Source: Chloroflexia bacterium (lineage in GTDB: Bacteria > Chloroflexota > Chloroflexia > QHBQ01). From it: 64,000 nt of DNA. Both the position numbers and the translations under genes were made by a program. Shown here piece by piece: positions 8,373-49,700 of the stretch. The stretch spans positions 9,214-73,213 of the forward strand of contig JBBROH010000002.1 in the NCBI GenBank assembly GCA_038229595.1. The letters run 5' to 3'. The notes under the pieces are model-generated. The model made no database searches and had not been told where the DNA came from. It saw nothing but the letters and a program-made list of their open reading frames with translations. The number at the start of each line of letters is the position of its first letter. Position 1 is the stretch's first letter.

Positions 8373-10077
8373 ACTGCCCGCAAAAGCCCCGCTCCTGTGC
8401 AGGAGTGGGGCTTTCTGTTTCCGCTGTAATGGGGCTGCCGAAGTCGGTCGGCACTGTAGAGCGTAAGGGCGTTGCGTCTATTGCCCTATGCACAACCTTG
8501 CTCAGTTCACCGCGCTTGATGCTGTCGTTGGGGCGGTAGCAGAGGCCGCTGCCACAAGTCGCGCCGCTGATGATCGCCCTGCTGTTCAGCGTTTCGATGT
8601 ACTGCCAGAAGACGTTGCTGCTCGGCACGTCGCTGAAGGTCGGCACAGTGGGGGTTGCCACGGCGTAGCCCCCGGCCCCCACCACAATTTTGGCTAGCTG
8701 CGCCCGCGTCACCGGCCCGTTTGGGCGGAAGTTGCCGTCGGGGAAGCCGCCGACCACTTGCCTGCTGACTAGCGTCTCAACATAGAGATAGAAGGGGTGA
8801 TTGGCTGGCACATCCACGAAGCGCGGCGTAGCGGGCGGCGTGACCAGCGGGATGCCAAAGCCGCTGACGATAATTTTGGTTACTTCACCGCGCGTTGTAT
8901 TGCCGTTGGGCCTGAAGTTACCGTCCGCGTAGCCATTGATTACCCCACGACAGGCAAGGAAGATGATGTCGTCGTAGAAGATATAGCTGGCAGGCACGTC
9001 GGGGAAGCTGCGTAGGCAAGGGGTGGCCGTCAGCGTCGGCGTGGGCGTGGGCGTTGGTGGGCCGGGAGTGGTTGTACACTGGGGGTTGTTGCTGTCGCCA
9101 GCGCAGCAGAGTGAGGGCGGGCAGGTGGTGGCTGAGAAGGTCGGTGTGGGCGTGTAAGTGCGCGTTGGTGGGCCGGGAGTGGTTGTACACTGGGGGTTGT
9201 TGCTGTCGCCAGCGCAGCAGACTGAGGGCGGGCAGGTGGTGGCTGAGAAGGTCGGCGTGGTCGTGTAAGCACGCGTTGGTGGGCCGGGAGTGGTTGCCGT
9301 CGGGCTGGGGTTAGCACTCGGTGTCCTGGTTGCGGTGGGCGGCGGGCCAAGTACGACTACACGTCCAGTCATGCCGGTGTGGATGTTGCACTGGTAATCG
9401 TAGGTGCCAGCCGTGTTGAATGTATAGCTGTAGACCGCGTTCTGGGCGAGGTTGCCAGAGTTCAGCACCCCCGGCGGGCTGGTCGAGTTGACGGTGTGGC
9501 TGGTAGCATCACGGTTCGTCCACTGCACCCTGGTGCCAACCGTGACGGTCAACACCTGGGGGGCGAAGGTGAAGCTCTGGATGTCTACTGCCACTGGCGC
9601 AGGCAGCACCACAATCCGCGCCGTCATGAACGGGTGCGGGTCGCAGAGGTAGTCGTAGACCCCGACCAGGGTGAAGGTGCGGCTAACAATGCGGTTGGTT
9701 GGTGAGATGGCGTAGGCAGTCTGGAATGGTTCTGGTGGAATGCTGCCGCTGTTCAGCGTTGAGGCATTGTGGCCGATCTGGTCGTAGTTGTCCCAGGCGA
9801 CAGTATCGCCAACGGTGATCGTCAACACGCGGGTGGTAAAGCAGAAGTTCTGGATCGCGACGGTAGCGGTGATCGATTGGTTGGCCGGGTGGTTGCTAGC
9901 ATCCACGTCAAACTGGCGTTGGTCACAGGGTAGACCCCCCTGCGGCTGTTGGTGCAGACTGTGGTTTGCAGGGGCCGCCAGGGTCGAGCCAGCAATGAGC
10001 AGCCCACTAACCAGCATGGTAAGGCCGAGGGCAAGAGCCAGCAGCGGCAGGATGGGCAAACGCTTCTCATCTTTCAT
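8302..10077 (-). CDS. secreted two-domain blue-copper (cupredoxin, auracyanin/plastocyanin-like) protein with repeat linker and three C-terminal SLH domains
   Basis: N-terminal signal peptide MKDEKRLPILPLLALALGLTMLVSGLLIAGSTLAAPA. Two type-1 Cu sites (YDYLCDPHPFMTARIVV; YDYQCNIHTGMTGRVVV: Cys-x2-His-x4-Met). Cys/Pro/Thr-rich duplicated linker. Three SLH-like repeats (FPDVPASYIFY..., FVDVPANHPFY..., FSDVPSSNVFW...). About 57-aa tail past the last SLH overlaps the regulator gene. Confidence 0.7.
   Translation of the reverse strand: MKDEKRLPILPLLALALGLTMLVSGLLIAGSTLAAPANHSLHQQPQGGLPCDQRQFDVDASNHPANQSITATVAIQNFCFTTRVLTITVGDTVAWDNYDQIGHNASTLNSGSIPPEPFQTAYAISPTNRIVSRTFTLVGVYDYLCDPHPFMTARIVVLPAPVAVDIQSFTFAPQVLTVTVGTRVQWTNRDATSHTVNSTSPPGVLNSGNLAQNAVYSYTFNTAGTYDYQCNIHTGMTGRVVVLGPPPTATRTPSANPSPTATTPGPPTRAYTTTPTFSATTCPPSVCCAGDSNNPQCTTTPGPPTRTYTPTPTFSATTCPPSLCCAGDSNNPQCTTTPGPPTPTPTPTLTATPCLRSFPDVPASYIFYDDIIFLACRGVINGYADGNFRPNGNTTRGEVTKIIVSGFGIPLVTPPATPRFVDVPANHPFYLYVETLVSRQVVGGFPDGNFRPNGPVTRAQLAKIVVGAGGYAVATPTVPTFSDVPSSNVFWQYIETLNSRAIISGATCGSGLCYRPNDSIKRGELSKVVHRAIDATPLRSTVPTDFGSPITAETESPTPAQERGFCGQSIVAGRPAAPPDSRQSGSRGRVR
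8386..8422 (+). terminator. putative intrinsic terminator of the kinase/regulator operon
   Basis: GCCCCGCTCCT-gtgc-AGGAGTGGGGC hairpin followed by TTTCTGTTTCC. Lies inside the 3' extension of the convergent cupredoxin ORF. Confidence 0.5.
9051..9310. repeat. 111-bp coding tandem repeat (2.3 copies) inside the cupredoxin linker
   Basis: cgttggtgggccgggagtggttgtacactgggggttgttgctgtcgccagcgcagcag... repeated at 9051, 9163 and partially at 9274. Encodes the duplicated peptide CTTTPGPPTRTYTPTPTFSATTCPPSLCCAGDSNNPQ. Confidence 0.8.
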
Positions 10078-21595: not shown

Positions 21596-23164
21596 ATGCC
21601 GCTAATCAAGATGCTGGTGCGCCTCAGCGCGTTTTTGGGCAAGGAGGTAGCCGAGGTGCGGCGGCAATTGCGCCTGGTCTTTACCCTGGTGCTTGGCCCC
21701 TTCCTCATCCTCTTTATCTTCGGTATCGGCTACGTCAGCAAGCAGCAGAGCCTGACTACGATCATCGTGGGGCCGCCAGGAACGCAGGCTCGCAGTGCGG
21801 AGATCAAGAAGCAGTTTGCTGTTGAGCAACTGGACGTGCGCGAAGTGACGGAAGACCTAGGCCGGGCGATGAGCGAACTACATGACCGCCGGGTAGATGC
21901 GGTGGCGGTGATTCCCACCGACCCCTACAGCGACATCTTGGGCGGCAAGCAGGCCGAATTGCGGCTCAACGTCAACGAGATTGACCCGGTGAAGATCAAC
22001 ATCGTCTACTTCCTCACCTATGCCTACTCTAACGAACTGAACAAGCGCATCCTCGAAGCGGGCTTCAAGCAAGGGCAGGCGGGCCTTACCGACTTGCAGG
22101 GGCAGGTGGGCCAATTGCGCCAGGCGGTCAACCGCTTGCAAGCGGGCTTGCAGGCCAACGACGTGCAGGCGGTGACGAAGGAGAGTGGCGACCTGCTGAC
22201 TAGCAGCAACTCCGTCCTGGTCGTTCTCGCCGTCGCGGGCGGTGCCGTAAACAACGACCAGCTAGCAGCAGTGCCGATCAGCCCGGCAGGTCAGCAGAAG
22301 GTGGACAGCATCAACAAGGCGCAGACCGCTATCCGCCGCCTGAACGACAACGTGCAGGCGATCCGCAGCGATGCCCTGCGCGGCCAGGCGAGTCGGGAGC
22401 AGCAGGTGCAACGCCTCAAGCAGGTAGATGAAGACCTCGCTACCCTGGAAGCAACCACTGGGCAGATCACCAACATCGCCCCCGGTGTCCTGGTCTCCCC
22501 CTTCCGCGCCATCGTCAAGAATGAGGCCAGCAAGGAGGACAACTCCAACGGCGTTGAGATCAACTTCATCAACTACTACACCCCTGCCGTCCTTGCCCTG
22601 CTGCTCCAACACATCGCCGTCACCTTCGCAGCCCTCTCGCTAGTGCGTGAACGGACAATCGGCACGCTCGAACTGTTCCGCGTCGCCCCGATCCACGCCA
22701 CCGAAATCCTGGTCAGCAAGTACGTTGCCTACATCCTGTTCGTGGCCGTGGTCGGTGCTGCCCTGGTCGGTGCGCTAGTCAGCCCGCTGCTGGGCGTACC
22801 GTTCAAGGGCGACCCCGTCTGGTTCAGCCTGACCGCCCTCGCGCTGGTCTTCGCCAGCCTGGGCCTGGGCTTCTTCATCAGCCTAATCTCCCAAACCGAG
22901 TCGCAGGCGGTGCAGTTGTCGATGCTGGTGCTGCTCACCTCGGTCTTCTTCAGCGGCTTCTTCCTCTCGCTCAGCAGCTTCAACCAGTACGTGCAGTATG
23001 GAGCGCAAGGGCTACCGATCACTCACGGCATCCAGGGCTTCCAGCAGGTCATGCTGCGCGGCCAGCTACCGACCGACTACGTAATCGGCGCACTGACGAC
23101 GATGGGGCTGATCTTCTTCGTGATCAACTGGCTGCTGTTCCGCCGCGAGTTGGCTAAGGGCTAA
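21596..23164 (+). CDS. ABC-2 family permease with large extracytoplasmic coiled-coil domain
   Basis: N-terminal TM, about 280-aa soluble Gln/Ala-rich domain, five C-terminal TM helices. Translationally coupled to the ATPase. Confidence 0.7.
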   Translation: MPLIKMLVRLSAFLGKEVAEVRRQLRLVFTLVLGPFLILFIFGIGYVSKQQSLTTIIVGPPGTQARSAEIKKQFAVEQLDVREVTEDLGRAMSELHDRRVDAVAVIPTDPYSDILGGKQAELRLNVNEIDPVKINIVYFLTYAYSNELNKRILEAGFKQGQAGLTDLQGQVGQLRQAVNRLQAGLQANDVQAVTKESGDLLTSSNSVLVVLAVAGGAVNNDQLAAVPISPAGQQKVDSINKAQTAIRRLNDNVQAIRSDALRGQASREQQVQRLKQVDEDLATLEATTGQITNIAPGVLVSPFRAIVKNEASKEDNSNGVEINFINYYTPAVLALLLQHIAVTFAALSLVRERTIGTLELFRVAPIHATEILVSKYVAYILFVAVVGAALVGALVSPLLGVPFKGDPVWFSLTALALVFASLGLGFFISLISQTESQAVQLSMLVLLTSVFFSGFFLSLSSFNQYVQYGAQGLPITHGIQGFQQVMLRGQLPTDYVIGALTTMGLIFFVINWLLFRRELAKG

Positions 23165-25717
23165 CTCGCCTAGCAGGTTGAAGACCGCCTGGGCTGCCTG
23201 CGCCCGCGTCAGGGTGCTGCGTGGCGAGAAGGTGGTCGCGCTCGTCCCTTGCATCAGGCCGTGCAGCCGGGCCGCCTCTACCCAGCCGTAGAAGATATTG
23301 CTGGGCGACACGTCGCTGAAGCTGGGGCTGGCTGGCTGTTGGGGGCCGAAGCCAGCCGCAGCGGTTAGCATCTTCGCCATCTGCTCCCGCGTTACGCTGG
23401 CGTAGGGCTGGAAGTTGCCATCGCTGTAGCCACTAATCACCCCATGTGCGTAGGCGGTCTCCACGTAGCGGTAGAGGAGGTTGCTGGCTGGCACGTCGCG
23501 GAAGGTGGCAGTAGCAGGGTTGAGCAACGGCCAGCCCTGGGCCTGGGTCAGCATCTTGGCTAGCTCGTCCCGCCGCACCTGGGCGTTGGGCGCAAACAGG
23601 TTCGGCCCTGTCCCCTGCACCACCCCACGAGCATTGAGCCAACTGATCGCTGTCCAGGCCCAGTAACTATTTGGCACATCAATGTAAGTGTAGGTGGCCG
23701 CCTTCTGGCGGATCAGTTCGCGCTGCACCGCCCGCAGGTTGACCGCCCGTGGCTGGATGTTGGCTGCCGCCGCTTGCGCCGCCGCGACCCCCGCCGCCTG
23801 GCCCATTGCCGCCCGCACTGGCTCCATCCGCAACGCGCCAAAGCCGAGGTGGGTGGCCGAGGCCGCCAGCGGCACCAACAAACCATCCAACCTGAGTGGC
23901 ACGATTGCGCGGTATGGCACCTGGTAGGGCTGGGTGTTGCCCAACCACATATTGCCATCTGCGAACTGCCTGCCATTGCCGTCAGCGATCAGGCGCACGG
24001 TATGCGAGTCCAACGCGTACTGGCCGGTGGCGATGCTGTCGGTGAAGTAGCGGCTGACCGTGCTGCACCCCTGGCTGAGGCAGGCGTAATCGCGCTCGCT
24101 GAGGGTGTATTCGCCGATTAGCCGATTACCCTCGCGGATGTAGAGCAAGGGTGGCAGGCCGTCTAGTGTGCCGTACTCGTTGGTAGGCAGCCAGTCTTGG
24201 GCGGCAGGCACCCGCTGGCGCGCCCAGTAGACAAAGCTGAGGGCGTAGAGGCGGTGTTGCTGCTCAATAGCCGAGCGGCTGGCGGGGTTGGTCAGGTAGT
24301 TGTCCTCGCGCTCGACCGAGAGGTAGTTGCCGCCAGGGATATCGGCATAGTTCAGTTCGATCTTGTTGTTCGGCAGCAACCGCCGCCAGTTGAACCAGAT
24401 GTCGTTGAAGTAGCCGATGCTGTTTGCGCCATTGGTCGTGCTGAACTGCTGCACATACGCCTGGTAGAGGCTGTTCTGGTCGCCAGTGCGCCCCTGTGGA
24501 TCGGCGATGCTGGCGAAGGGGTGGGGCATAGTGCGGTTCGGCTGGTAGACGAGGGTCATCAGGTAGCTGTAGGCTTGCAAGCCGTAGTCGCCGTCGCCGA
24601 CCGACTCGCCGACCTGGGGCGGCACGAAGGTCTTGCCCGCGTCCAGTTCGTCAAAGGTGCGCGGGCGCAGAGGGAGCGGGGCAGCATTGTCGGTGCTGCT
24701 ACGTTCGCGGCCAAAGGCATAGTCCTGCCAGCGGGTGCCAGCGTCGGCCAGCACGTCGCCGCGGCTGGTCGCATCGATCACCACTTTGCCGTAGAGCGCA
24801 CTGCTCTGCCCCCCGCTGAGGACGTAGACCCCGCGCACGCTATTGCCCGCAGTGATCACCCCGCTGTAAGCGGTGTTGAGCAGCAGAGTGACAGTCAGCC
24901 CTTGCAGCAGTTGCATCATCTGGTTCTGGGCCACCAGTGGCTCATAGGTGAAGCCGTCGGTGGGGTAGTCATTCGCAGGATTGCAGACCAGGTTGTAGAC
25001 TTGCAGGTAGGCGGCGTGGGTCGGCGGGGTAGTAGCGGTGTTGGTGTACCAGGTGTAGAGCGAGTGGCCGCTATAATAGCTGCCGCCGCCCACTTTGGCC
25101 TGCATCGCCCCGGCCACCGTCGGCTGCTCGAAGTTAGTATCTACCAGCAGCGGCGGCGGGCTGTAGCATTGCAGTTGGCCGCTGTTGCGCTGGCTGCGGT
25201 AGTAGGCGCGCACCGCCAGGCGAAACTGCTCGAACAGGCCGCTGATCGCTGTCGGGTTGCCGTCGGTTGCGCCGAGGCCGCCCGCACTGACCATGCCGCC
25301 CAGCCAGCCGCTCTCCTCGACCAGTGCAACCCGCGCCCCCAGCCGGGCCGCAGCAACGGCAGCCGCCACCCCCGCCGAGGTACCGCCCACTACCACCACG
25401 TCGAACTGGTTGGCGGCGGGCGTAGCCGTTGGCGGCGGGACAGTTGTCGCAGTCGCAGTCAGGGTGGCGGTAGCGGTCACAGTCGCAGTCGCAGCCGCAG
25501 TCAGGGTGGCGGTAGCGGTAGCGGTCACAGTCGCAGTCGCAGTCAGGGTGGCGGTAGGGGTCAGAGACGTGGCTGGGGTGGGGGTTGCGCTGGGCGGGTC
25601 AGCGGTGGCCGTCGCGGTGGGGTTGCCACCGCTGGGGGCGGGCTGGCTCTGCGCCTGTGCGAGGGTGGGGAGCAGCAGGCTGGCGACGAGGATAAGCAGG
25701 AACAGGCGGTGCTTCAA
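23066..25717 (-). CDS. secreted FAD-dependent oxidoreductase (FAD_oxidored family) with Thr/Ala repeat linker and C-terminal SLH domains
   Basis: Signal peptide MKHRLFLLILVASLLLPTLAQA. Rossmann dinucleotide motif VVVVGGTSAGVAAAVAAARLGARVALVEESGWLGGM. About 550-aa catalytic region. SLH repeats FRDVPASNLLYRYVETAYAHGVISGY..., FSDVSPSNIFYGWVEAARLHGLMQG... Convergently overlaps the ABC-2 permease 3' end by 99 nt. Confidence 0.65.
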   Translation of the reverse strand: MKHRLFLLILVASLLLPTLAQAQSQPAPSGGNPTATATADPPSATPTPATSLTPTATLTATATVTATATATLTAAATATVTATATLTATATTVPPPTATPAANQFDVVVVGGTSAGVAAAVAAARLGARVALVEESGWLGGMVSAGGLGATDGNPTAISGLFEQFRLAVRAYYRSQRNSGQLQCYSPPPLLVDTNFEQPTVAGAMQAKVGGGSYYSGHSLYTWYTNTATTPPTHAAYLQVYNLVCNPANDYPTDGFTYEPLVAQNQMMQLLQGLTVTLLLNTAYSGVITAGNSVRGVYVLSGGQSSALYGKVVIDATSRGDVLADAGTRWQDYAFGRERSSTDNAAPLPLRPRTFDELDAGKTFVPPQVGESVGDGDYGLQAYSYLMTLVYQPNRTMPHPFASIADPQGRTGDQNSLYQAYVQQFSTTNGANSIGYFNDIWFNWRRLLPNNKIELNYADIPGGNYLSVEREDNYLTNPASRSAIEQQHRLYALSFVYWARQRVPAAQDWLPTNEYGTLDGLPPLLYIREGNRLIGEYTLSERDYACLSQGCSTVSRYFTDSIATGQYALDSHTVRLIADGNGRQFADGNMWLGNTQPYQVPYRAIVPLRLDGLLVPLAASATHLGFGALRMEPVRAAMGQAAGVAAAQAAAANIQPRAVNLRAVQRELIRQKAATYTYIDVPNSYWAWTAISWLNARGVVQGTGPNLFAPNAQVRRDELAKMLTQAQGWPLLNPATATFRDVPASNLLYRYVETAYAHGVISGYSDGNFQPYASVTREQMAKMLTAAAGFGPQQPASPSFSDVSPSNIFYGWVEAARLHGLMQGTSATTFSPRSTLTRAQAAQAVFNLLGELALSQLAAEQQPVDHEEDQPHRRQCADYVVGR
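25441..25570. repeat. short-period coding tandem repeats (gtcgcagtc/gcggtagcggtcaca units) encoding a (T-A-T-V/L)n linker
   Basis: Visible periodicity cgcagtcgcagtcagggtggcggtagcggtcacagt... repeated about 3 times. Translates to TATLTATATVTATATATLTAAATATVTATATLTATATT. Confidence 0.6.
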
Positions 25718-29486: not shown

Positions 29487-29672
29487 TCACTCGTCCTCCT
29501 CGTAGGGGCAGTTGCGGCAGCCGTTGCCACAGCAGTAGCCGCGCTCAAGCAGGAACTCGCGGCAGAGCGCGCCATCAGCATCGAAGGGATAGCTGGCAGG
29601 TAGCTCCTGCTCTGCTGCTGGCGGGCTGGCGGGCTGGTTGCTCGGCTCAGGCGACGGCTTTGGCATAGTCAT
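29487..29672 (-). CDS. small Cys-rich protein (CC-x3-C-x2-C motif)
   Basis: 61 aa. MTMPKPSPEPSNQPASPPAAEQELPASYPFDADGALCREFLLERGYCCGNGCRNCPYEEDE. Overlaps the upstream gene's 3' end by 26 nt. Coding status uncertain. Confidence 0.35.
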   Translation of the reverse strand: MTMPKPSPEPSNQPASPPAAEQELPASYPFDADGALCREFLLERGYCCGNGCRNCPYEEDE

Positions 29673-30453
29673 CTTCCTTGAGCGTAGTCAACCGCGTGTA
29701 GTAGAAGCGACGTTGGAAGCGGTAGAGTATCTTCAGCGTCGCCCCACCCAGGGTCAGCACCAGCAGCAGGTTGAGGGCGGATCGCCAGAGATCGTAGGCG
29801 AACGAGGTAGCGAAGTAGAAGATGGTGAAGCGGCTGACCAGTTCGCCAACCCGCTCCAGGCCACTGCTGCTGAGGTTAGTTGCGTCGGCAGAGGCGGGCC
29901 AGAACCAGAGGTTGAGCAAGGCACCGTAGAGCAAGCCCCAGCCCAGCCCCAGCAGGCCGAGCGCAGTCAGGTTGAGGGCCATGTTAGCCTGCCAGCGACG
30001 CAGCAACCGACCGAGTAGCCCCGCACTTGCGCCTAGCCAGGCGGCAGCCAGCATCTGGTAAGGCAGCCAGGGGCCAAAGCCGCCAGTCACTATCGCCGAA
30101 ACGAAGATGGTCAGCGCGCCAAAGAGGAAGCCGAAACCCGCCCCGAACACGTAGCCGCCGACCAGCAGCAGGAAGAAGATCGGGGAGGCTCCGCCAAAGG
30201 TAGGCAGTAGCCGCAACGCGCCGTTCAGGGCCGCCAGCACCGCCAGCAGAGCGACACCCTTCGCGTCCAACTCTTGCCCCTGCACGGCACCGAGGCCAAC
30301 CACCAGCACCAGCACTCCGAGCAGCAGGGTGGCAGCCAGGGGCGGCACTGCACTGGCGAAGAAGGGCCAGAGTAGCATCGCCAGCCCCAACAGCGTGCTG
30401 AGCAGCAGGGCCAGGTTAGCGATCAGGCGGCCTTGCCCCCACTCATCCCGCAT
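29647..30453 (-). CDS. polytopic membrane protein, candidate ECF-transporter substrate-capture (S) component
   Basis: About 268 aa with six or seven TM helices. Translationally coupled to the EcfAA' gene (start overlaps its stop). No recognisable soluble domain. Assignment is by context only. Confidence 0.4.
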   Translation of the reverse strand: MRDEWGQGRLIANLALLLSTLLGLAMLLWPFFASAVPPLAATLLLGVLVLVVGLGAVQGQELDAKGVALLAVLAALNGALRLLPTFGGASPIFFLLLVGGYVFGAGFGFLFGALTIFVSAIVTGGFGPWLPYQMLAAAWLGASAGLLGRLLRRWQANMALNLTALGLLGLGWGLLYGALLNLWFWPASADATNLSSSGLERVGELVSRFTIFYFATSFAYDLWRSALNLLLVLTLGGATLKILYRFQRRFYYTRLTTLKEDDYAKAVA

Positions 30454-32086
30454 CTTGCACCCCCACATCTTGCCCCGCCATCGCCTCGGCCACCGTCAGG
30501 AACCGTCCGTTGGTCAGCTTGCCGATCTGCGAGGAGAAGATCAGCGACTCGCTGAGGACGGCGCGGGTTGGGCCGTCCACCGCGATCTCGCCCGCCGCCA
30601 GTAGGGCCACCCGGTCAGCGACTTCGGCGACCAACTCTACGTCGTGGGTGACAAGCACTACCGCCCGGCCCGCCGCCCGCAACCAGCGCAGGTAAGCGAC
30701 CAATGCCCCCTTGCTCTCGTAATCCAGCCCGCGAGTTGGCTCATCCAACAGCACCAGGGCAGGGTCAGCGACGAGCAGGGCGGCAATCGCCACCCGCTGC
30801 TGCTGGCCGATGCTAAGGTCACGCGGGTAGCAGTCGGCCAGCCCGCTGAGGCCGAGCGCAGTCAACAAATCGGCGATCCGACCCTCGTCTACCGCCAGCT
30901 TGTGGCCGCGCAGGGTGAAGCGCAGCTCGTCGGCTACCGTGTCGGCAAAGAGCAGGCTAGAGGGGTTCTGCGGCACGTAGCCAACCTGCCGAGCAATCGC
31001 GCTGGGGTCAAGCCCAGCCACGCTGCGCCCCAGCACCTGAACCGCGCCCCGCTGCGGACGCAGCAGCCCGATCAGCAGCTTGAGCAGCGTAGTCTTGCCG
31101 CTGCCATTGCGCCCCAAAATCGCCAGCACCTCGCCCCCCCGAATGTCGAAGCTGACCCCACGCAACACTTCCCGCCTACCGTAACCAAACCACACTCCGC
31201 GCAAGTCCGCACTGCCTTCCTTCGCGGCGGGCGGGGTAGGACTGGCTGGCACAGCCTCCTCCCCTCGTGCGCGGGTAGGCAGGGTGGCGGTGAGTGAGCG
31301 GGCGAACGGCCTCGCTTCGCGCACAGTGAGCGGCAGCGGCTGCCAACCTAGCCGCTTCGCCAGGGTCAGCAACGGCGGGGTGAGCGGCACCTGGGCCAGA
31401 GCCTCGCGGGGCGGCCCGTCGGCAACGATGCGCCCAGCCGCCATGTACAGCAGGCGATCAGCATACTGCACCACCCGCTCCAGCCGATGTTCAGAGAGGA
31501 TGATCGTCATGCCCAGGTCGCTGTTCAGCTTTTGCAGCAAGGTCAGCACCTCCTCCGCACTCTGCGGATCGAGTTGCGAAGTCGGCTCGTCCAGCACCAG
31601 GATGGCGGGCTGCATCGCCAGAGCCGCCGCAATCGCCAGCCGCTGACGCTCACCCCCACTCAGGCTGCTGATCGGACGAGCGCGTAGCTGGTCGAGGTCG
31701 AGTTGATGCAGCAACTCCTCTACCCGCCGCCGCATCAGCGCGGGGTCAAGGCCGAGGTTCTCCATGCCGAAAGCGACCTCGCCCGCCACCTCCTCCGTCA
31801 CCGCCTGCGCCTCTGGGTCCTGGAAGACGAAGCCGACCCTGCCGCCCAACTGCTGCGGCTGCACAGTGAGGGTGTCCACGCCGTCTACCAGCACCCGCCC
31901 GCCAAACTTGCCGCCATAGAAGTGCGGCACCAGCCCAGCGATAGCCCGCAGCAGGGTGGACTTGCCCGCCCCGCTGCCGCCAACCAGCAGCACGAACGCC
32001 CCCTCTGGCACGCTGAGGTCAACCTCGTGCAGGGCAAAGGTGGTGGCGGTGGGGTAGCAGTAACTGAGCTTTTCGAGCTTGATCAT
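30443..32086 (-). CDS. energy-coupling-factor transporter ATPase, fused tandem EcfA-EcfA' (two ABC domains)
   Basis: Two complete ABC cassettes. Walker A GGSGAGKST / GRNGSGKTT. Signatures LSGGERQRLAIAAAL / LSIGQQQRVAIAALL. Walker B LVLDEPTSQLD / LLDEPTRGLD. Start at MIKLEKLSYCYP (32086) abuts the cyclase gene stop. Confidence 0.85.
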   Translation of the reverse strand: MIKLEKLSYCYPTATTFALHEVDLSVPEGAFVLLVGGSGAGKSTLLRAIAGLVPHFYGGKFGGRVLVDGVDTLTVQPQQLGGRVGFVFQDPEAQAVTEEVAGEVAFGMENLGLDPALMRRRVEELLHQLDLDQLRARPISSLSGGERQRLAIAAALAMQPAILVLDEPTSQLDPQSAEEVLTLLQKLNSDLGMTIILSEHRLERVVQYADRLLYMAAGRIVADGPPREALAQVPLTPPLLTLAKRLGWQPLPLTVREARPFARSLTATLPTRARGEEAVPASPTPPAAKEGSADLRGVWFGYGRREVLRGVSFDIRGGEVLAILGRNGSGKTTLLKLLIGLLRPQRGAVQVLGRSVAGLDPSAIARQVGYVPQNPSSLLFADTVADELRFTLRGHKLAVDEGRIADLLTALGLSGLADCYPRDLSIGQQQRVAIAALLVADPALVLLDEPTRGLDYESKGALVAYLRWLRAAGRAVVLVTHDVELVAEVADRVALLAAGEIAVDGPTRAVLSESLIFSSQIGKLTNGRFLTVAEAMAGQDVGVQDAG

Positions 32087-32087
32087 T

Positions 32088-32741
32088 TCACTCCAAGATG
32101 GCGAAGGCGCGCACTGGGAAGCTCGTACCCCCTTCGATGGCGGGCGGCACGGCGAAGAAACGGCTGCCTTCAGCCGGTAGCTGCTCAAGGCTACAGAGGT
32201 GTTCGATGATCGGGATGCTCGCACCGAGCAAGATGGTGTGAGCAGGGCGCGATTTGTCTGTCATAGCGTCCAGGTTGGCGCAATCTATGCCGACCAGGGC
32301 CGCGCCTGCCGCCACCAATGCTTCACAGGCGGCAGCGGTGAGGTAGGGGCCGGAGCGGAAGTAGTCCCCGCCCCAGCGTTGCGCCCAGCCGCTATGCACC
32401 AACACCGCCTTGCCGCGCACTGCCAGCCCAACGAAAGCCTCTGGCCCAACCGCCCCCTCCAGGGCGACAGCAACTACGATGGCGGGCAGGTTCGCCAGCC
32501 TGTCCAGAGGCAGCTTCGCCAAATCCGCAAGGCTGGCATGGCGGTGGAAGGGAGCATCCACATAGGTACCAGTGTTGCCCGCGATCTCGTAGGTAGCAAT
32601 CTGGAAGGTCGTACCGGGGGCATAGTTGCCACGGGCCACGCTCTGCTCGTGCGTAAAGAGGATGTGGAAGCGGGGTTCTGGCACGCCAGGGTAGGAGGGC
32701 ATGGCAGGGCCGAGCGGGTGACTGAGGTCGATCAGGGTCAT
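32088..32741 (-). CDS. cyclase-family protein (kynurenine-formamidase-like metal hydrolase fold, PF04199-like)
   Basis: MTLIDLSHPLGPAMPSYPGVPEP...GNTGTYVDAPFHRH matches the HxGTHxDAPxH-type motif (first His replaced). About 217 aa. Embedded between the EcfT and EcfAA' genes. Confidence 0.6.
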   Translation of the reverse strand: MTLIDLSHPLGPAMPSYPGVPEPRFHILFTHEQSVARGNYAPGTTFQIATYEIAGNTGTYVDAPFHRHASLADLAKLPLDRLANLPAIVVAVALEGAVGPEAFVGLAVRGKAVLVHSGWAQRWGGDYFRSGPYLTAAACEALVAAGAALVGIDCANLDAMTDKSRPAHTILLGASIPIIEHLCSLEQLPAEGSRFFAVPPAIEGGTSFPVRAFAILE

Positions 32742-34552
32742 GGTTCGCTCCTTTGCAGCACGCTGGCTGCCGTCTGGTCGGGCTGGCGGGCGTGGATTAG
32801 ACTGACCAGAGCAGGGGGTAGCAGCAGCGCGCTGGTCAGCAAGGCGGGTAGGAGGTCGAAGGGCGGCCACTGCAACTGGGGGTAGGGGTAGTAGTCCAGT
32901 GGCAGGCTGCTGAACAGGCGCAGCAGGGCGAAGCTGGTGGCTACTGCCAGCCCGACCGCCAGCAGCACCCGGTCACGTGGCCGCCAGACAAGGTGGCGGT
33001 AGGCAGTGCGCCCCTTGAAGCCGGGCGGCCCATAGCCCCACGCTCGCGTTGCCAACGCCTCGGCCAACTGGCTAGCCTGCTCCAGGCTGAGGAGCAGGAG
33101 GGGGGCGACCAGGGGTAGGAGGTTGCGCGCCCGCACCCGATAGCCACGCAACTGCTGGGCCTGCTGCACGTTGCGCGCCGCCGCCACTGTCTGTGGCACA
33201 AACAGCACTGCGATGCTGGCGACCAGGCCCAGCCGCCGCAGCGGGCCGGGGATCAGGCCCAGCACCTCTCGGTGGCTAACCACCCGATTGAAGGTGGCAA
33301 AGACGGCCAGCAGGGTGAGGATGGTCAGCCCCTTGCTTGCGCCCCAGGCCAGCCCCTCGGCGGTAAGGATGCCGCCAATTGCGGGCCACTCTCGCGGGAG
33401 GGTGAGCAAAACAGTACGCCCAGCGTGCGCGGTCAAGAAGTTGAACAGGGTAATGAAGGCGAAGCTGACCACGCCCAGGCGTAGCAGCACGCTGCCCTGC
33501 TGCTGCCCCTCTAGCGGGGCGGCGCAGGCCCGATAGACGATCAGGCTAGTCAGCAGCAGCATAGCCAGATAGTAGGGGTTGCTGCCCACCGCCAGCACCG
33601 CCGCTAGCAGCCACCCCAGCCAGGCCCTGCTGTTCAACGGCTCCCCTGTTGCACCGCGCCCGACCAGCAGCAGCAGCCCGAGTAGCAAGATGATGGCGAC
33701 CGCCAGCCCCTCTGCACCACGGCCTGCGCCTGGTGGTTGGCTCGTAGCCACCAGCAGCACGTCTGCCGCCCCCGGCGTGGTCGTTGCGGTGACAACCAGG
33801 GTGGCGGTAAGCGTCGCTGCTGGGGTCTCGCTCGGTGGTGGTGGAGGCGTGGCGGTTGCTTGCGGCGTGGCGGTGGCTGCCTGCGCTGTTGTTGTGGCTA
33901 GCGTAGCCTGCCCAACAATCGGGCTGGGGCTGGGCATAGCGGTGGCTGGGGCTGGCCTAGTAGTAGCCGGGGCCGTGCGTGTCGGCGTACTGCTGGGGCG
34001 CGGCAGGCGGGTGGGGGCGTGCGTAGCAGTCGGCGGCGGGGGCTGGTAGAGGTCGGCGAAGCTGTAGAGCGGTGGTTGCTCCTTGCCACCCCAGGCCCAG
34101 CTCTCTACCGCTCCGTCGCGCACCCGATAGTCGCCTGCGCCAGAGTTGGCTAGCCGCCACTGGGCGGGCGGGCCAGCGTCGAGGTGGAAGTACCGCCAGA
34201 ACTTGCACTCTGCGCCCTGGCATTGGCAGAAGGCCGACTGGCCGGGGGGGTGGCAGCCCTCACCCTGGAGCGCGGCCACCGCGCCACCCAGACCGAGGTA
34301 GTCTATCTCTGCCTCCAGACTGGCCCGCTCAAGCAGTTCCAGCCCGCTGATGCTCTCTGTGCTGAAAGCCACCACCCTGGTCACTACGCGCCCATCTCCA
34401 TGCCGCACCACCAGAGCCGCGTGATGCAGCGGCGGGCCAACAACCGGTTGCGCGGCAGCAGCATTGCCCACAAAGAGGATCAGGGCTAGCAGGCAGAGCA
34501 GCCCTCCCCCTGCCCACTTGGGCGGCAGGCGAGAGGAACGGAATGAGGACAT
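32738..34552 (-). CDS. DUF4430 (transcobalamin beta-domain-like) extracytoplasmic domain fused to ECF transporter T component (EcfT/CbiQ)
   Basis: N-terminal signal/TM (GGLLCLLALILFVGNAAAA). DUF4430-like segment (ISGLELLERASLEAEIDYLGLGGAVAALQGEG...FWRYFHLDAGPPAQWRLANSGAGDYRVRDGAVESWAWG). About 100-aa Pro/Thr/Ala linker. C-terminal CbiQ-type membrane domain (ARNVQQAQQLRGYRVRARNL... conserved EcfT loop). Start uncertain: 34552 or 34627. Confidence 0.65.
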   Translation of the reverse strand: MSSFRSSRLPPKWAGGGLLCLLALILFVGNAAAAQPVVGPPLHHAALVVRHGDGRVVTRVVAFSTESISGLELLERASLEAEIDYLGLGGAVAALQGEGCHPPGQSAFCQCQGAECKFWRYFHLDAGPPAQWRLANSGAGDYRVRDGAVESWAWGGKEQPPLYSFADLYQPPPPTATHAPTRLPRPSSTPTRTAPATTRPAPATAMPSPSPIVGQATLATTTAQAATATPQATATPPPPPSETPAATLTATLVVTATTTPGAADVLLVATSQPPGAGRGAEGLAVAIILLLGLLLLVGRGATGEPLNSRAWLGWLLAAVLAVGSNPYYLAMLLLTSLIVYRACAAPLEGQQQGSVLLRLGVVSFAFITLFNFLTAHAGRTVLLTLPREWPAIGGILTAEGLAWGASKGLTILTLLAVFATFNRVVSHREVLGLIPGPLRRLGLVASIAVLFVPQTVAAARNVQQAQQLRGYRVRARNLLPLVAPLLLLSLEQASQLAEALATRAWGYGPPGFKGRTAYRHLVWRPRDRVLLAVGLAVATSFALLRLFSSLPLDYYPYPQLQWPPFDLLPALLTSALLLPPALVSLIHARQPDQTAASVLQRSEP

Positions 34553-34638
34553 CCCCACCCTGCCCTCCCCAGCGAGCAGGGAGGGTTCAGGGGTAGAAGC
34601 GGGCCTGATCGTGCCAGGGAGGTGCAAGCGGGTGCTTT

Positions 34639-35784
34639 CTAGCTGCGCCGGGGGCGGAGCAGCAAGCCGCCCACCAGCCCGCCGAGCGCGAGGGCGAACA
34701 AGGTCAGCAGCCAGCCGTAGTCGCTGCTACCGGTGCGCGGTAGGCGGGGGATGCTAGGCGGGGTAGCGACCATGCTACTGTCGTTGGCGACGGCGGGGGT
34801 GTCGCTCACCGCTGCGCTGCCTGCCGCGTCGGGGATCGCAATTGGCAGGGTGGCATAGCGCAGGGCGGGGATCGCCTGCAAGGTCGCCAGCACGTTATCT
34901 TCGCCGCTTGCGCCCTGGAAGCGGAAGGCACCGTCGGCGTTCTGCAACTTGAGCAGGGCAGCTAGCGGGTCATTGCCAGCCGCACTCTTGAAGCCAGCGG
35001 GGTCGAGGTTAGCGGCCAGCAAACCCTGGATTACGTAGGCGGTCGAGTTCGCGTCGGTGTCGGTGCCATACTGACTGGGCTTCTGGTAGGGGAAGCCGCC
35101 GTCGTCGTTCTGCTGCGTCTTGAGGTAGGCAACCGCCTGGGTGATCGCCGCGTCGTCGGCAGCCACGCCATTGGCGGCCAGGGTCTGGATCACCAGCGCA
35201 GTGGTGTTGCTGTCCCCCTCACCGGCTGCGCCCAACCCCGCGAAGGCAAAGCTGCCATCGGCAAGCTGGAGCTTCTTCAGCGCGTCAATCGCCGCTTGGG
35301 GTGCGCCGATGCGACTTTGTAGCAGACAATATGCCTGGTCGAGAGTGGTCTTGCCGAAGGTGGCGGTCGTCTTGTCGTAAGCCTTGCTGATCGCTTCGAA
35401 GACCGCCTTCGGCAGGTAGCCACGCCCAGCGAGGGCTACCTTGCAGGCGGCGGCGGGCGAACTGGCGGTGGCCCCGTTCGCCACCAAGTAAGCGAGCAGC
35501 GACTTGCCGCCCTTCGCCACGCCAGTCAACTCTGCCCCACTGGCGGCGAAAGCAAAGGCGGCATCAGTGGATTGGCCGAGGGTGGACGGCCCCTTGAGCG
35601 CAGGGCCAAAGCCGCCGTCGGCTTGTTGTGCGCCGCGCAGCCAGCTAGCCGCCGTTTGCGCGGCGGTGGTTGCGGCGGCAGGGGCAGCGGCAGGGGCGGC
35701 GGGGGCGGCGGCAGCGGGCGGGCCGAAGCCGATCAACATGGTCAGTACCAGCAGCAGGCTACTCAACTTCTTGGCGTAGGACAT
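34639..35784 (-). CDS. secreted alpha/alpha-toroid (prenyltransferase/squalene-cyclase-repeat) protein with C-terminal LPXTG sortase anchor; candidate cobalamin-binding alpha-domain analogue
   Basis: Signal peptide MSYAKKLSSLLLVLTMLIGFGPPAAAAP after an AAAGGAG RBS. Repeated Q..DGGF-type motifs (QQADGGFG, QLADGSFAF, QQNDDGGFPYQ, QNADGAFRFQ). C-terminal LPRTG, then a hydrophobic helix and RPRRS. Confidence 0.6.
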   Translation of the reverse strand: MSYAKKLSSLLLVLTMLIGFGPPAAAAPAAPAAAPAAATTAAQTAASWLRGAQQADGGFGPALKGPSTLGQSTDAAFAFAASGAELTGVAKGGKSLLAYLVANGATASSPAAACKVALAGRGYLPKAVFEAISKAYDKTTATFGKTTLDQAYCLLQSRIGAPQAAIDALKKLQLADGSFAFAGLGAAGEGDSNTTALVIQTLAANGVAADDAAITQAVAYLKTQQNDDGGFPYQKPSQYGTDTDANSTAYVIQGLLAANLDPAGFKSAAGNDPLAALLKLQNADGAFRFQGASGEDNVLATLQAIPALRYATLPIAIPDAAGSAAVSDTPAVANDSSMVATPPSIPRLPRTGSSDYGWLLTLFALALGGLVGGLLLRPRRS

Positions 35785-35810: not shown

Positions 35811-35846
35811 CCAACAAAAGACCCCCGCCCGAAAGGGGCGAAGGTA
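35811..35846 (-). terminator. candidate attenuator/expression-platform terminator of the cobalamin riboswitch
   Basis: On the minus strand, CGCCC-cuuuc-GGGCG hairpin followed by GGGGUCUUUUGUUGG. Lies between the aptamer and the RBS. Confidence 0.4.
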
Positions 35847-35869: not shown

Positions 35870-36030
35870 TAGAGTCGCCCCAGCAGGTAGCTCACACATA
35901 CCCTCTCTCGCGAAGGGTGGTCGTGTCTGCGTTGAATGGGCGATCTGGCTCACCGCGAATAGCGATTACAGTAGCGGGACTGCGCCGGGTTTGCACCGGA
36001 CTTCCCCCAGGTTCAACGCTTATTAACATC
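35870..36030 (-). ncRNA. cobalamin (AdoCbl-type) riboswitch aptamer
   Basis: Minus-strand leader reads ...GUUGAACCUGGGGGAAGUCCGGUGCAAACCCGGCGCAGUCCCGCUACUGUAAUCGC...GAGCCAGAUCGCC...GAGCUACCUGCUGG. The conserved cobalamin-riboswitch core (GGUG.AAUCCGG.GCGG.CCCGCCACUGU) is present with a single C-to-U change. Confidence 0.7.
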
Positions 36031-36036
36031 TTTCGC

Positions 36037-36065
36037 AGTATAACAGGCGGCAGCGGGCTTGTCAA
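36037..36065 (-). promoter_or_regulatory. sigma70-type promoter (TTGACA-17-TATACT) driving the riboswitch operon
   Basis: Minus strand TTGACAagcccgctgccgcctgtTATACT immediately downstream of the preceding gene's stop. Predicted TSS about 36030. Confidence 0.5.
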
Positions 36066-36073
36066 ACAGGGGA

Positions 36074-36520
36074 CTAGCGGCGGTTGAGCCAGCGGCGGAT
36101 GGTGCTGGCGATGCGCTCGAAGGGAGTTTCGGGCTGCTCAAATTGGATCGGCTGGCCGCGCCACCGCTTCTCGCCGGGGGGTAGAGACGTGCGCCCACTC
36201 TGGCTGAAGTAGTAGATCACTGCGCCGATCAGGGCCAACACCGCCAGCGGCCTGAGCAGCAAGGTGATGCGGCTGGGGTCAATCGGGGAGAGGATGATCA
36301 CTAGCAGGGTAAAGATCGCCACAGCGGTGAGGATGCTACCAGGGGTCCAGCGCACCGAGCGGCGGTTCGCTTTCGGCTTTGCGGGGTTGGCGCGGTTGGG
36401 CGGCAAGGGGCGGGCTGTCTCCTGCGGGCGCGGAGCGGCACCGTTTACCTTGCCCCATCCTGCTTCCTCGGCCTTCCGCAGAATATCCTCGATCTGTTTT
36501 TCGTAACGCTGCTGTGGCAT
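36074..36520 (-). CDS. hypothetical membrane protein (two TM helices, basic/proline-rich loop)
   Basis: MPQQRYEKQIEDILRKAEEAGW... then TM helices ILTAVAIFTLLVIILS / LAVLALIGAVIYYF. Start at 36520 follows an AGGGGGA RBS. Confidence 0.45.
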   Translation of the reverse strand: MPQQRYEKQIEDILRKAEEAGWGKVNGAAPRPQETARPLPPNRANPAKPKANRRSVRWTPGSILTAVAIFTLLVIILSPIDPSRITLLLRPLAVLALIGAVIYYFSQSGRTSLPPGEKRWRGQPIQFEQPETPFERIASTIRRWLNRR

Positions 36521-36578
36521 AGCGTGATCCCCCTGTCCCTTGAGCGACATTGCTCCCCGCTAATACGATCCTTGCCTA

Positions 36579-46740: not shown

Positions 46741-49700
46741 TTGATCAGCAGCAACAAGCGGCGCAGCCCCATGTGGATTGGTCTTAGCCTCGTGGTCGTC
46801 CTCACCATCACGCTCGGCAGCATTAGCGCACTGGCAGCCACTGGCAGCACCCTCACTGCCCAGCAGCCTGCAAAGGCGATCAGCCAGCCAGCAGTCAGCA
46901 CCAGCATCGTGATCAGCCAACTGTATGGCGGTGGCGGCAACACTGGCGCAACCTATCAGAACGACTACGTTGAACTGCTCAACATCAGTGCAGCAACGAT
47001 CAACCTCAGTACGTACTCGCTCCAGTATGCCAGTGCCGCTAGTGCCTTCACCACCACCAACGTCAACACGCTGACGGGCAGCATCGCCCCAGGCCAATAC
47101 TACCTGATCAAGCTGAACAGTAACGCTGCTATTGGTGCGCTACTACCGACCCCAGATTACACTGGCACGCTCGCGCTGAGCAACAATAACGGCAAAGTCG
47201 CCCTGGTCAGCGGGGCTACCGCCCTTGCCTGTGGCAGTGTAGCTAACGACTGCTTCCCGGCTGGCACTGCTCTGCCGACGATCATCGACTTCGCGGGCTA
47301 TGGCACGGCCAACAACTTTGAGGGGGTGGCTGCAGCTGCTGCGCCCAGCAACACCACCGCCGACCTGCGGGCAGGCAATGGCTGCACCGACAGCGACCGG
47401 AACTCAATTGACTTCTCGCTGAGCCAGCCTGCGCCGCGCAACAGCAGCAGCCCGCTCAACCCCTGCGGCACTCTGCCGACGGCCACCAACACCATCACCC
47501 CTGGTGGAGCGACCAACACCGCCACCGCGACGGCCACCATCGGCAGCCCAACGGCCACCGCCACCGCGACGATCACCCCCACTGTGACCAGCATCCCCAC
47601 TGTGACCAGCACCCCCCCTGGCCCTGCGACCCGCATCCATGACATCCAGGGTGCCAGCCACCTCTCGCCCTACAGTGGCACGGTCGTCAGCAACATCCCC
47701 GGCATCGTCACCGCCAAGAAGACCAACGGCTTCTACGTGCAGGACGCGACGGCGGATGCAAACGACGCAACCTCCGAGGCGATCTTCATCTTCACCAGCA
47801 GTGCGCCAACCGTTCTAGTGGGCGATAGCATCGTCTTCAGCGGCACGGTCAAGGAGTTCCGCCCTGGTGGGAGTGCCTCTGACAGCCTGACGACCACCGA
47901 GATCGACAACCCTGGCCGAGTGATCACCATGCTGTCCAGCGGCAACCCCCTGCCTACCCCGATCACCATCGGCACTGGCGGGCGCGTCCCCCCCACCAAC
48001 GTGATCGAGAACGACGCAGTTGGTGATGTGGAGAATGGCAGCAATACCTTCGACCCCGCCCAGGACGGCATTGACTTCTATGAGAGCATGGAAGGTATGC
48101 TCGTGAGGGTCAACAACACGGTCGCGGTCGGCCCCACCAACGACTATGGCAGCAACAGCGAAATCCCGGTGCTGACCGACAACGGCAGCAACGCTACTGG
48201 CACCCGCACCGTGCGCGGCGGCATCGAAATCACCGCTACCGCCAGCTACGTAACCAGCACCAACCCCACCGACGACTACAACCCAGAGCGGATCATCCTC
48301 AACGACCTGGTACTCAGTGCCAGCGGTGGTGGCCGCCTGCCGAACGTCAACGTCAGCGCAACCTTCAGCGGCGTGATCACTGGCGTGCTAGACTACAACT
48401 TCGTCAACTTCAAGCTGCAAGTGACCAGCCAGCCAGTGGTTGCCAGCAACCCGCTGACCCGTGAAGTGACCGCCCTCGTCTCTGACCAGGCGAGCAACAA
48501 GCTGACGGCGGCTACCTTCAACCTGGAGAACCTCAACCCCGGTGACACGATCACCAAGGTGCTGGGTCTCTCCAACCTGATCGTCAACAACCTGAAGGCT
48601 CCCGACATCATCGCGGTTGAAGAAATCCAGGACAACAATGGGGCGACCAACAACGGTGTGGTGGACGCTAGCCAGACCTACGCCTTGCTGATCAACAGCA
48701 TCAGCAGCATCAGCGCAACGGTTAACTACACCTACACCCAGATCGACCCGCTGGACGGGCAAGACGGCGGTCAGCCAGGCGGCAACATCCGCCAGGGCAT
48801 CCTCTATCGCACGGATCGCGGCCTCAGCTTCAACTCGCGGCCCGGCGGCGGCTCGACGATCAGCAACACGGTTGTTAACGGCGCGGGTGGCCCGCAGTTG
48901 CAGTTCAGCCCTGGGCGCATCGACCCGCTCAACGTGGCCTGGACTAGCAGCCGCAAGCCGCTGACCGCTGAGTTCAGCTACAACGGCCAGCGTTTGTTCT
49001 TCATCGTCAACCACTTCAACTCGAAGGGTGGCGACAACGGCGTGTTTGGCCGCTTCCAGCCACCACTGCGCGTCTCTGAAGTGCAACGCCAGCAGCAGGC
49101 TACCATCGTCAACGGCTTCGTGCGCCAAATCCTCAACCTCGACGCGAACGCCAGGGTCGTCGTCCTCGGCGACATCAACGACTTTGAGTTCTCCAACACG
49201 GTCAACGTCCTCAAGCTCGGTGGCGACAGCACGCCCGAACTGGTCAACCTGTTCGACCTGCTGGCCCAGAACGAACGCTACAGCTACGAGTTCCAGGGCA
49301 ACGCGCAGGTACTCGACCAGATTCTGGTCAGCCCCAGCCTCTATGCCAACGGCCAGCCCCAGTTGGATGTTGTCCACGCCAACTCGGAGTTCTTCGACCA
49401 GGCCAGCGACCATGAGCCGCAGGTAGCCCGCCTTGCCATCCAGGCCGTACTAACCCCAACAGTGACCCCGACCGGCACCGTCAGCGTGACTCCGACTGGC
49501 ACGATCACCGCCACTGGCACCGTCACTGTGACCCCGACTGGCACGATCACTGCTACTGCCACCGTTACTGGCACGCCGACCGCCACGATCACCGCCACTG
49601 CCACCGTTACTGGCACGCCAACCGCCACCGCCACCCCCTGCTCAACCACCAACTTCGCGGCCACCCTCAATGGTATGCAGGAGGTTCCGCCCAATACCTC

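Follow-up and report, generated by a model that had tools for sequence, protein, structure and literature searches.

A B12-riboswitch operon of a Chloroflexia bacterium encodes a predicted two-part corrinoid capture system whose beta domain is fused to the transporter subunit EcfT

In contig JBBROH010000002.1 of a Chloroflexia bacterium, a cobalamin riboswitch precedes genes for two putative surface proteins and an ECF transporter, and one of the surface domains is joined to the transporter subunit EcfT in a single polypeptide. This arrangement raises the question of what the transporter takes up and what the surface proteins, fused or separate, contribute to the uptake. Our analysis of the window (i.e., the whole 64,000-nucleotide stretch of DNA) indicates that the locus is probably a B12-repressed operon for corrinoid uptake, built from a dedicated (group I) ECF transporter and two predicted surface capture proteins. 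The operon type is widespread and was foreseen in 2007; its sole oddity here is the fusion of the beta half to the adjoining EcfT subunit. On the minus strand, a promoter, an AdoCbl riboswitch and a terminator-like attenuator are followed by six close-packed genes, whose products are an LPRTG toroid protein, the beta/Pro-Thr linker/EcfT fusion, a PF04199 cyclase-like protein, the EcfA-A' ATPase, EcfS, and a putative DUF5522 protein:

36037..36065, minus strand: sigma-70-like promoter (TTGACA, 17 nt spacer, TG-TATACT)
35890..36031, minus strand: AdoCbl (B12) riboswitch aptamer (RF01482, 57.7 bits against a gathering threshold of 50, full length 1-149)
35821..35845, minus strand: terminator-like hairpin and T-tract (10-pair stem with 7 GC pairs, then CTTTTGTT)
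34639..35784, minus strand: gene 1, secreted alpha/alpha-toroid protein (381 aa from ATG)
32738..34552, minus strand: gene 2 (604 aa, single unbroken ORF)
34046..34426, minus strand: gene 2, aa 43-169, predicted beta-grasp (SLBB) domain (transcobalamin-beta-like, carrying a Cys-rich insert; putative member of the SCO2322 family, PF28005)
33710..34045, minus strand: gene 2, aa 170-281, low-complexity linker (71% Pro/Thr/Ser/Ala)
33659..33709, minus strand: gene 2, aa 282-298, transmembrane helix (equivalent to the anchor at the C-terminus of stand-alone beta proteins; kept at the junction)
32738..33637, minus strand: gene 2, aa 306-604, EcfT (CbiQ) transmembrane domain (PF02361, 1.4e-09, profile 11-209 of 216; stop codon included)
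32088..32741, minus strand: PF04199 "putative cyclase" (arylformamidase-like), whose ATG overlaps the gene 2 stop (ATGA)
30443..32086, minus strand: fused EcfA-EcfA' double ATPase (two ABC_tran domains, PF00005; TIGR04520 1.4e-110, TIGR04521 2e-107)
29647..30468, minus strand: ECF S component (membrane, substrate-specific; PF12822, 2.4e-09)
29487..29672, minus strand: small Cys-rich ORF overlapping the end of ecfS (by position, the DUF5522 gene of relatives)

The promoter matches the consensus at 11 of 12 positions (0.0 such matches expected in shuffles). As the earlier note had proposed, the riboswitch lies ahead of the first gene, i.e., immediately 5' of gene 1, and the hairpin downstream of it is likely its expression platform (attenuator). 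A cobalamin riboswitch was likewise found directly 5' of the toroid gene in all 15 loci tested, which come from two phyla and include those of Herpetosiphon aurantiacus and Streptomyces thermoviolaceus. Cobalamin riboswitches govern B12 synthesis, uptake of B12 or cobalt, and B12-independent isozymes. Further downstream, the presence of EcfT, EcfA/A' and EcfS in one operon is the hallmark of a dedicated-module (group I) ECF transporter; EcfS had no sequence match among solved structures.

The product of gene 1 consists of a signal peptide (aa 1-26), a toroid (~aa 38-318), a linker, LPRTG at aa 348, a helix (aa 358-376) and an RPRRS tail. It thus has the layout of a sortase substrate (LPXTG, hydrophobic helix, basic C-terminal tail), with a score slightly below the cut-off of the NCBIfam LPXTG_anchor model TIGR01167 (14.1 versus 15.9 bits). 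In 77 of 120 gene 1 homologs, [LIM]PX[TSA]G occurs within the final 45 residues. Coordinates, strand, the repeat motifs QQADGGFG, QNDDGGFPYQ and QNADGAFRFQ, and the LPRTG-hydrophobic-RPRRS end were all as described before. The structure predicted for the toroid, with high confidence, is an alpha/alpha barrel.

Gene 2 starts with a signal peptide, and the proposal that it links a secreted domain through a Pro/Thr linker to a CbiQ/EcfT domain was borne out, with a single ORF and the PF02361 match listed above; the N-terminal motif of the fused EcfT domain aligns with stand-alone EcfT proteins. The identity that the earlier note had given to the secreted domain fared differently. It had named this domain DUF4430 and had staked its reading on a score for that family; no PF14478 match was obtained at E<=0.1, and taken literally this outcome counts against it. 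Five relatives were likewise without a DUF4430 match at E<=1, as were 26 proteins from across the diversity of the family at E<=10. PF28005 (SCO2322) is recorded on the relatives P0003, P0004, P0006, P0011 and P0012 and is unrecorded on the identical protein P0001. In the predicted model of the beta domain, a strand hairpin follows the helix, which is the feature that defines the transcobalamin-like SLBB clade in the account of Burroughs et al. (PMC1796856), and the predicted fold would accordingly place the domain in that beta-grasp clade. Its kinship to DUF4430 and transcobalamin is one of predicted structure only: searches against solved structures with a single sequence and with 8-sequence and 26-sequence profiles returned no transcobalamin and nothing related. 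The only hits, ribosomal protein L4 and a Cys-rich collagen C-propeptide, were dismissed as chance.

Across 80 Chloroflexota species loci, the usual order is toroid, beta, EcfT, EcfAA', EcfS. More specifically, the toroid gene is adjacent in 55 of these loci, and beta followed directly by a separate ecfT is found in 37; the toroid-beta-ECF gene order is identical in Streptomyces. The two halves are encoded as separate predicted surface proteins, as the earlier note had stated, and this layout is standard in Chloroflexota and Streptomyces rather than peculiar to the window. It had also been inferred before, in 2007 (PMC1796856) and in 2019 for Lactobacillus sakei lsa1836-1840 (bioRxiv 10.1101/864751). 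Natural fusions of beta and toroid exist in L005, L056, L079 and L081 as well as in P0136 and P0265, and the beta domain leads in such bacterial proteins. L056 additionally has a run-on frame of beta with EcfS, comparable to the frame of gene 2.

The beta-EcfT fusion itself is present in 4 of the 80 loci, in a survey that covers the best 150 of the 3381 family cluster representatives retrieved by the beta-domain profile. The fusion is real and rare, and we found no description of an EcfT-beta fusion in the literature. About 105 of 147 relatives terminate in a single helix, and in many relatives ecfT begins 0-4 nt past the stand-alone beta gene. With a membrane helix at the end of the beta protein and ecfT so close behind, one mutation would fuse both with topology unchanged. 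The fusion is an end-to-start read-through joining of adjoining genes in which the beta anchor helix was kept. Retention of this helix also implies that the domain was membrane-tethered beside the transporter before the genes were joined; the idea that the fusion is what puts the capture domain at the transporter was therefore overstated.

Whether the joining matters to the cell is evenly balanced in our estimation against the alternative that it is neutral, i.e., a loss of the stop codon with no functional consequence, or else an artefact of assembly. Neutrality agrees with the ease of the event, for which a single mutation suffices, and with the like run-on frame in L056. The fusion is, however, maintained in separate assemblies at 45-89% identity; it is therefore not an assembly artefact, and its persistence over this range argues that it is at least tolerated. 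It is conceivable that covalent attachment to EcfT confers an advantage.

The proposal that the two surface proteins bind a corrinoid draws on their likeness to the animal B12 carriers transcobalamin, intrinsic factor and haptocorrin, whose C-terminal domain is a DUF4430 domain (PMC4350170). These eukaryotic carriers combine the beta half with an alpha domain of family PF01122 (Cobalamin_bind) in one chain, whereas the operon in the window encodes two separate polypeptides. Moreover, the beta domain here differs from the transcobalamin group in having no DUF4430 match and a Cys-rich insert, and the toroid has a greater likeness to terpene cyclases. Toroid homologs that are 37-41% identical pass the Pfam gathering threshold of PF01122: P0079, P0072 and P0087 exceed its 25 bits, and PF01122 is the top family for P0079 (33.7 bits). 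As the toroid in the window has no PF01122 match at E<=0.1, its link to this family is transitive only.

Closer counterparts are bacterial. Burroughs, Balaji, Iyer and Aravind predicted in 2007 that SLBB surface proteins beside CbiO/CbiQ scavenge B12 (PMC1796856). Their proteins have in common with ours a secreted or Gram-positive-anchored SLBB domain, alpha/alpha toroids, SLBB paralog pairs and CbiO/CbiQ operons, and the partner domains given are toroid, Ig, FIVAR, fasciclin, propeller, sulfite oxidase and HTH. The parts of that paper drawn on here list no CbiQ/EcfT fusion, and Chloroflexota and the SCO2322 family lie outside their coverage. The SCO2321/SCO2322 loci of Streptomyces (NF053823, NF040672, PF28005) have a matching gene order and, in S. 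thermoviolaceus, a riboswitch as well. In contrast to the window, beta protein and EcfT are on separate genes there, and the window proteins score far under the SCO2321 and SCO2322 NCBIfam cut-offs (66.8 bits versus 300, and 14.6 versus 85 for gene 2 against NF040672, respectively). Our literature search found no experimental work on this toroid/beta (SCO2321-SCO2323) family.

[quoted passage not shown] Unlike the window, this reported heme system has its beta subunit unfused to EcfT, and the parts of the preprint drawn on here mention no riboswitch. The same substrate is conceivable for the window insofar as nothing in the sequence singles out one ligand. We nevertheless regard it as highly improbable, given the cobalamin riboswitch in 15 of 15 loci and the toroid homologs above the Cobalamin_bind threshold. 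We know of no cobalamin riboswitch that governs heme uptake.

In a further reading, the toroid would be an envelope enzyme (terpene cyclase, prenyltransferase or glycoside hydrolase) instead of a binding protein. Its Pfam matches are SQHop_cyclase_C (5.6e-11) and Prenyltrans (4.4e-06). The toroid does carry the terpene-cyclase-type trait of an alpha/alpha barrel with QW-type repeats, and it is closer to terpene cyclases than to intrinsic factor. A carbohydrate-active or terpene-cyclase family with intact catalytic residues was what the earlier note had named as speaking against binding; the toroid is cyclase-like, yet the catalytic DxDD (DVDD in 7xq4) aligns to D-S-N-T, and D-[TS]-N-[TS] replaces it in 116 of 117 toroid homologs. 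A secreted, wall-anchored protein would also be away from isoprenoid diphosphate substrates, and both the riboswitch control and the beta-domain fusions point to ligand binding. On these grounds we rejected the enzyme reading as highly improbable.

Least credible of all, and likewise rejected, is a CbiMNQO-like cobalt importer for B12 synthesis with surface proteins of unrelated role. Pfam and NCBIfam names do read CbiQ and cbiO, and cobalt ECF transporters are under B12 riboswitches, but PF12822 is the sole Pfam family that the S component matches at E<=0.1, so that it is not CbiM or CbiN. In addition, toroid and beta are the first genes behind the riboswitch, and they keep their synteny with the ECF genes in most of the 80 loci.

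Corrinoid uptake, the reading that we favor, would proceed as follows. At low AdoCbl, the riboswitch would allow transcription past the attenuator. The toroid protein would be exported and then attached by sortase to the cell wall via LPRTG, and the beta-grasp domain would be exported and held on a Pro/Thr leash of ~110 residues that ends in the membrane helix. In most relatives this helix forms the end of the protein, with ecfT as the next gene; in the small fusion clade, the stop codon has been lost so that the helix continues into EcfT. We infer that a corrinoid would be bound by toroid and beta, probably sandwiched between both as in transcobalamin, and then given to EcfS, from which the EcfT/EcfA-A' module would power its release into the cell. 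An AF2 model of toroid and beta as one concatenated chain with beta first gave pLDDT <50 for the beta part and hence no confident docking, and a complementary B12 pocket could not be derived from it. It is rather doubtful that this B12-regulated ECF class as a whole uses two-part surface capture and that, here, one jaw within EcfT shuttles B12 from the wall toroid to EcfS.

To our knowledge, ECF transporters are generally held to need no extracytoplasmic binding proteins. ECF-CbrT of Lactobacillus delbrueckii is reportedly a characterised ECF-type B12 importer that, unlike the transporter described here, uses a shared ECF module, and we know of no extracytoplasmic helper proteins that it employs; it and the proposed system of the window, the latter by prediction, would both be ECF transporters for cobalamin. 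If the account given here is true, some ECF importers draw on capture proteins at the cell surface, for which the standard ECF model has no place. Likewise, if toroid and beta bind corrinoids, the operon family, which is common in Chloroflexota and occurs in Streptomyces too, would be the bacterial equivalent of the animal B12 carriers and might represent their ancestral type. The fusion alone is a modest evolutionary variant. It does offer a handy natural test construct, with capture domain and transporter in one polypeptide at a 1:1 ratio, and one stop codon put back would restore the common split form.

The nearest relative is the Chloroflexota MAG GL122_UP_metabat_70. Among the relatives, the PF04199 gene is absent from L001 and L002 and present in the 89%-identical L004, and PF17653 is recorded on the genes syntenic to the small Cys-rich ORF in L001, L002 and L004.

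The toroid gene and the beta-EcfT gene lie in a compact minus-strand transcription unit, in which a promoter, a riboswitch, and a hairpin precede six genes that are separated by short gaps or overlap.

Features of the transcription unit in the window
36065..36037, minus strand: near-consensus promoter, first element of the unit
36031..35890, minus strand: AdoCbl riboswitch (RF01482, 57.7 bits)
35845..35821, minus strand: GC-rich hairpin with T-tract
35784..34639, minus strand: gene 1 (381 aa), with signal peptide, repeats, and C-terminal LPRTG, hydrophobic helix, and RPRRS
34552..32738, minus strand: gene 2 (604 aa), one ORF, with EcfT domain (PF02361, 1.4e-09)
32088-32741, minus strand: third gene, a PF04199 "putative cyclase" (arylformamidase-like) that separates beta-EcfT from ecfAA'
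Fourth gene, minus strand: fused EcfA-A' ATPase
Next, minus strand: EcfS (PF12822)
29487-29672, minus strand: small Cys-rich ORF, after EcfS and overlapping its end

This anatomy bears out the two genes and the riboswitch from which the earlier note had proposed a split transcobalamin-like B12 capture device, including the repeats and sorting signal of gene 1 and the single-ORF, EcfT-containing gene 2. More specifically, gene 2 encodes a signal peptide, a 127-residue (beta) domain, a 112-residue linker (71% Pro/Thr/Ser/Ala), one transmembrane helix, and the EcfT domain, and its stop codon overlaps the ATG of the PF04199 gene (ATGA). L004, the relative at 89% identity, has a counterpart of the latter gene (7824-8477); L001 and L002, the other fused-type loci, lack one. 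All fused-type loci encode, after EcfS, a Cys-rich protein (60-81 aa) whose gene overlaps the end of ecfS and may be a further operon member; DUF5522 was found on those of L001 (12109-12303), L002 (9204-9449), and L004 (10899-11081). Just upstream of the promoter is a 158-aa predicted membrane protein (window 36074-36550, minus strand) that had no Pfam match, and a gene of 140-148 aa, matched by position alone, occupies the equivalent site in L001, L002, and L004.

A one-genome-per-species scan returned 80 loci, all from Chloroflexota. A toroid gene was adjacent in 55 of these and two beta paralogs were present in 31; the gene directly after beta was a separate ecfT in 37 loci and ecfS in 16, and 4 loci had a beta-EcfT fusion. 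This gene order is shared by Streptomyces thermoviolaceus, and in all 15 loci tested, including those of Herpetosiphon aurantiacus and Streptomyces, a cobalamin riboswitch immediately preceded the toroid gene. An exhaustive search with a beta-domain profile yielded 3381 cluster representatives, and architectures were taken from the best 150 of them: 143 carried the beta domain alone, a few were beta-beta-toroid proteins, and a single C-terminal membrane helix was present in about 105 of the 147 newly returned proteins according to a crude hydrophobicity test. Beta and toroid domains also occur naturally in one chain.

Single-chain beta+toroid proteins among the surveyed loci
L005: 123-1496
L056: 4547-6805
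L079: 340-2733
L081: 5356-6903

In these proteins the beta domain comes first, followed by a short linker, such that the domain order is reversed relative to animal transcobalamin; after each of them, the locus encodes a second beta paralog that is anchored in the membrane. Together, the conserved neighborhoods, the riboswitches, and the natural fusions provide strong comparative evidence that toroid, beta domain, and ECF transporter work together, that the unit is part of the B12 regulon, and that operons of this family have the split layout as a rule. The idea that surface SLBB and toroid proteins encoded beside CbiO/CbiQ genes scavenge B12 was published in 2007 (PMC1796856), and the Streptomyces counterparts already have NCBI and Pfam models. 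What is new is the occurrence of the system in a Chloroflexota lineage, its consistent control by riboswitches in two phyla, and the beta-EcfT fusion.

In the proposed mechanism, low AdoCbl would permit transcription of the operon; the toroid would be anchored to the wall, and the beta domain would be tethered by a long flexible linker. Together, they would bind a corrinoid, probably between them by analogy with transcobalamin, and pass it to EcfS for ATP-driven import; we infer the ligand, the geometry of the sandwich, and the transfer to EcfS. Heme uptake has been claimed for the analogous Lactobacillus sakei operon, in which separate alpha-like and beta-like subunits are encoded (bioRxiv 10.1101/864751, 2019), but the riboswitch speaks against it here. 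Cobalt uptake is at odds with the type of S component. That the toroid is instead an envelope enzyme is countered by its secretion and wall anchoring, by D-S-N-T where cyclases have the aligned DxDD motif (DVDD in 7xq4; D-[TS]-N-[TS] in 116/117 toroid homologs), and by homologs at 37-41% identity that pass the Pfam gathering threshold of Cobalamin_bind (PF01122).

Returning to corrinoid binding, Cobalamin_bind was the best-scoring family for the toroid homolog P0079 (33.7 bits). The window toroid itself was not matched by this model in the Pfam scan, and its sequence link to the family is therefore transitive. Two D-x-N-[ST]-T-A motifs in successive repeats are nearly invariant among the 117 homologs, and the first takes the place of DxDD.

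Motifs of the toroid protein
35197-35217, gene 1 aa 190-196: GDSNTTA
35038-35064, gene 1 aa 241-249: TDTDANSTA

The motif residues are candidate ligand-binding residues.

The earlier note had assigned the N-terminal domain of gene 2 to DUF4430 (PF14478), an assignment that did not hold: this Pfam model matched neither the window protein nor five relatives (E<=1) nor 26 diverse family members (E<=10). By sequence, profiles of 8 and 26 beta-domain sequences found no cobalamin carriers among solved structures, and a recent Pfam family, SCO2322 (PF28005), is assigned to relatives of the domain. In a structure model based on eight sequences (pLDDT 73), the domain is predicted to have a beta-grasp core in which a strand hairpin follows the helix, the feature by which Burroughs et al. 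(PMC1796856) define the transcobalamin-like clade; the next fold, RnfH, scores 7.1. Thus, the predicted fold of the beta domain is transcobalamin-beta-like, and its family is a sister of DUF4430 rather than part of it. It carries a Cys-rich insert (GC...FCxCxG..C; GCHPPGQSAFCQCQGAECKFW; window 34123-34252, gene 2 about aa 101-143), in which two cysteines are invariant among the 26 diverse members. The model covers this insert with low confidence (pLDDT below 50), and the insert caused chance profile matches to the collagen C-propeptide. Disulfide formation or contact with the ligand are possible roles for it.

Among the best 150 of the 3381 representatives, EcfT occurred on beta proteins only in the query's own clade (P0001, identical to the gene 2 protein, and P0003). 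The fusion is real, because it recurs in separate assemblies whose proteins are 45-89% identical. Where the genes are unfused, the C-terminus of the beta protein consists of a membrane helix plus a basic tail, often with only 0-4 nt before the start of ecfT; gene 2 retains that helix (aa 282-298), followed by RGATGEP and the conserved EcfT N-terminal motif. Thus, the fusion is an end-to-start join of neighboring genes. The retained helix would place the start of EcfT on the cytoplasmic side, consistent with the positive residues after it. We found no description of such a fusion in the literature, in line with the earlier note's view of it as undescribed; in its available part, Burroughs et al. 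(PMC1796856) lists other partners for the domain and names CbiQ only as an operon neighbor. The functional change may be small, because the beta protein had a membrane anchor, and its gene lay beside those of the transporter, before the fusion arose; the effects shown for the fusion are limited to proximity and a constant 1:1 ratio.

Other long frames were seen in the survey. In a Caldilineales MAG (L056, 6833-9226), a 798-aa stop-to-stop frame runs from a beta domain through a Pro/Thr linker and a membrane helix to an EcfS domain; here the capture domain may have fused in parallel to the S component, and an internal start codon is possible. EcfT and EcfA domains share one 898-aa stop-to-stop frame in L019 (1838-4531) and L061 (1929-4622), which may represent T-A fusions or adjacent same-frame genes. 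Finally, the window encodes two large SLH-domain proteins (23066-25717, minus strand; 46741-51357, plus strand), one also with an FAD-oxidoreductase domain and the other with domains of the nuclease/phosphatase, CHRD, and DUF4397 types; anchoring by SLH domains is therefore used in this cell besides the LPXTG signal of the toroid.
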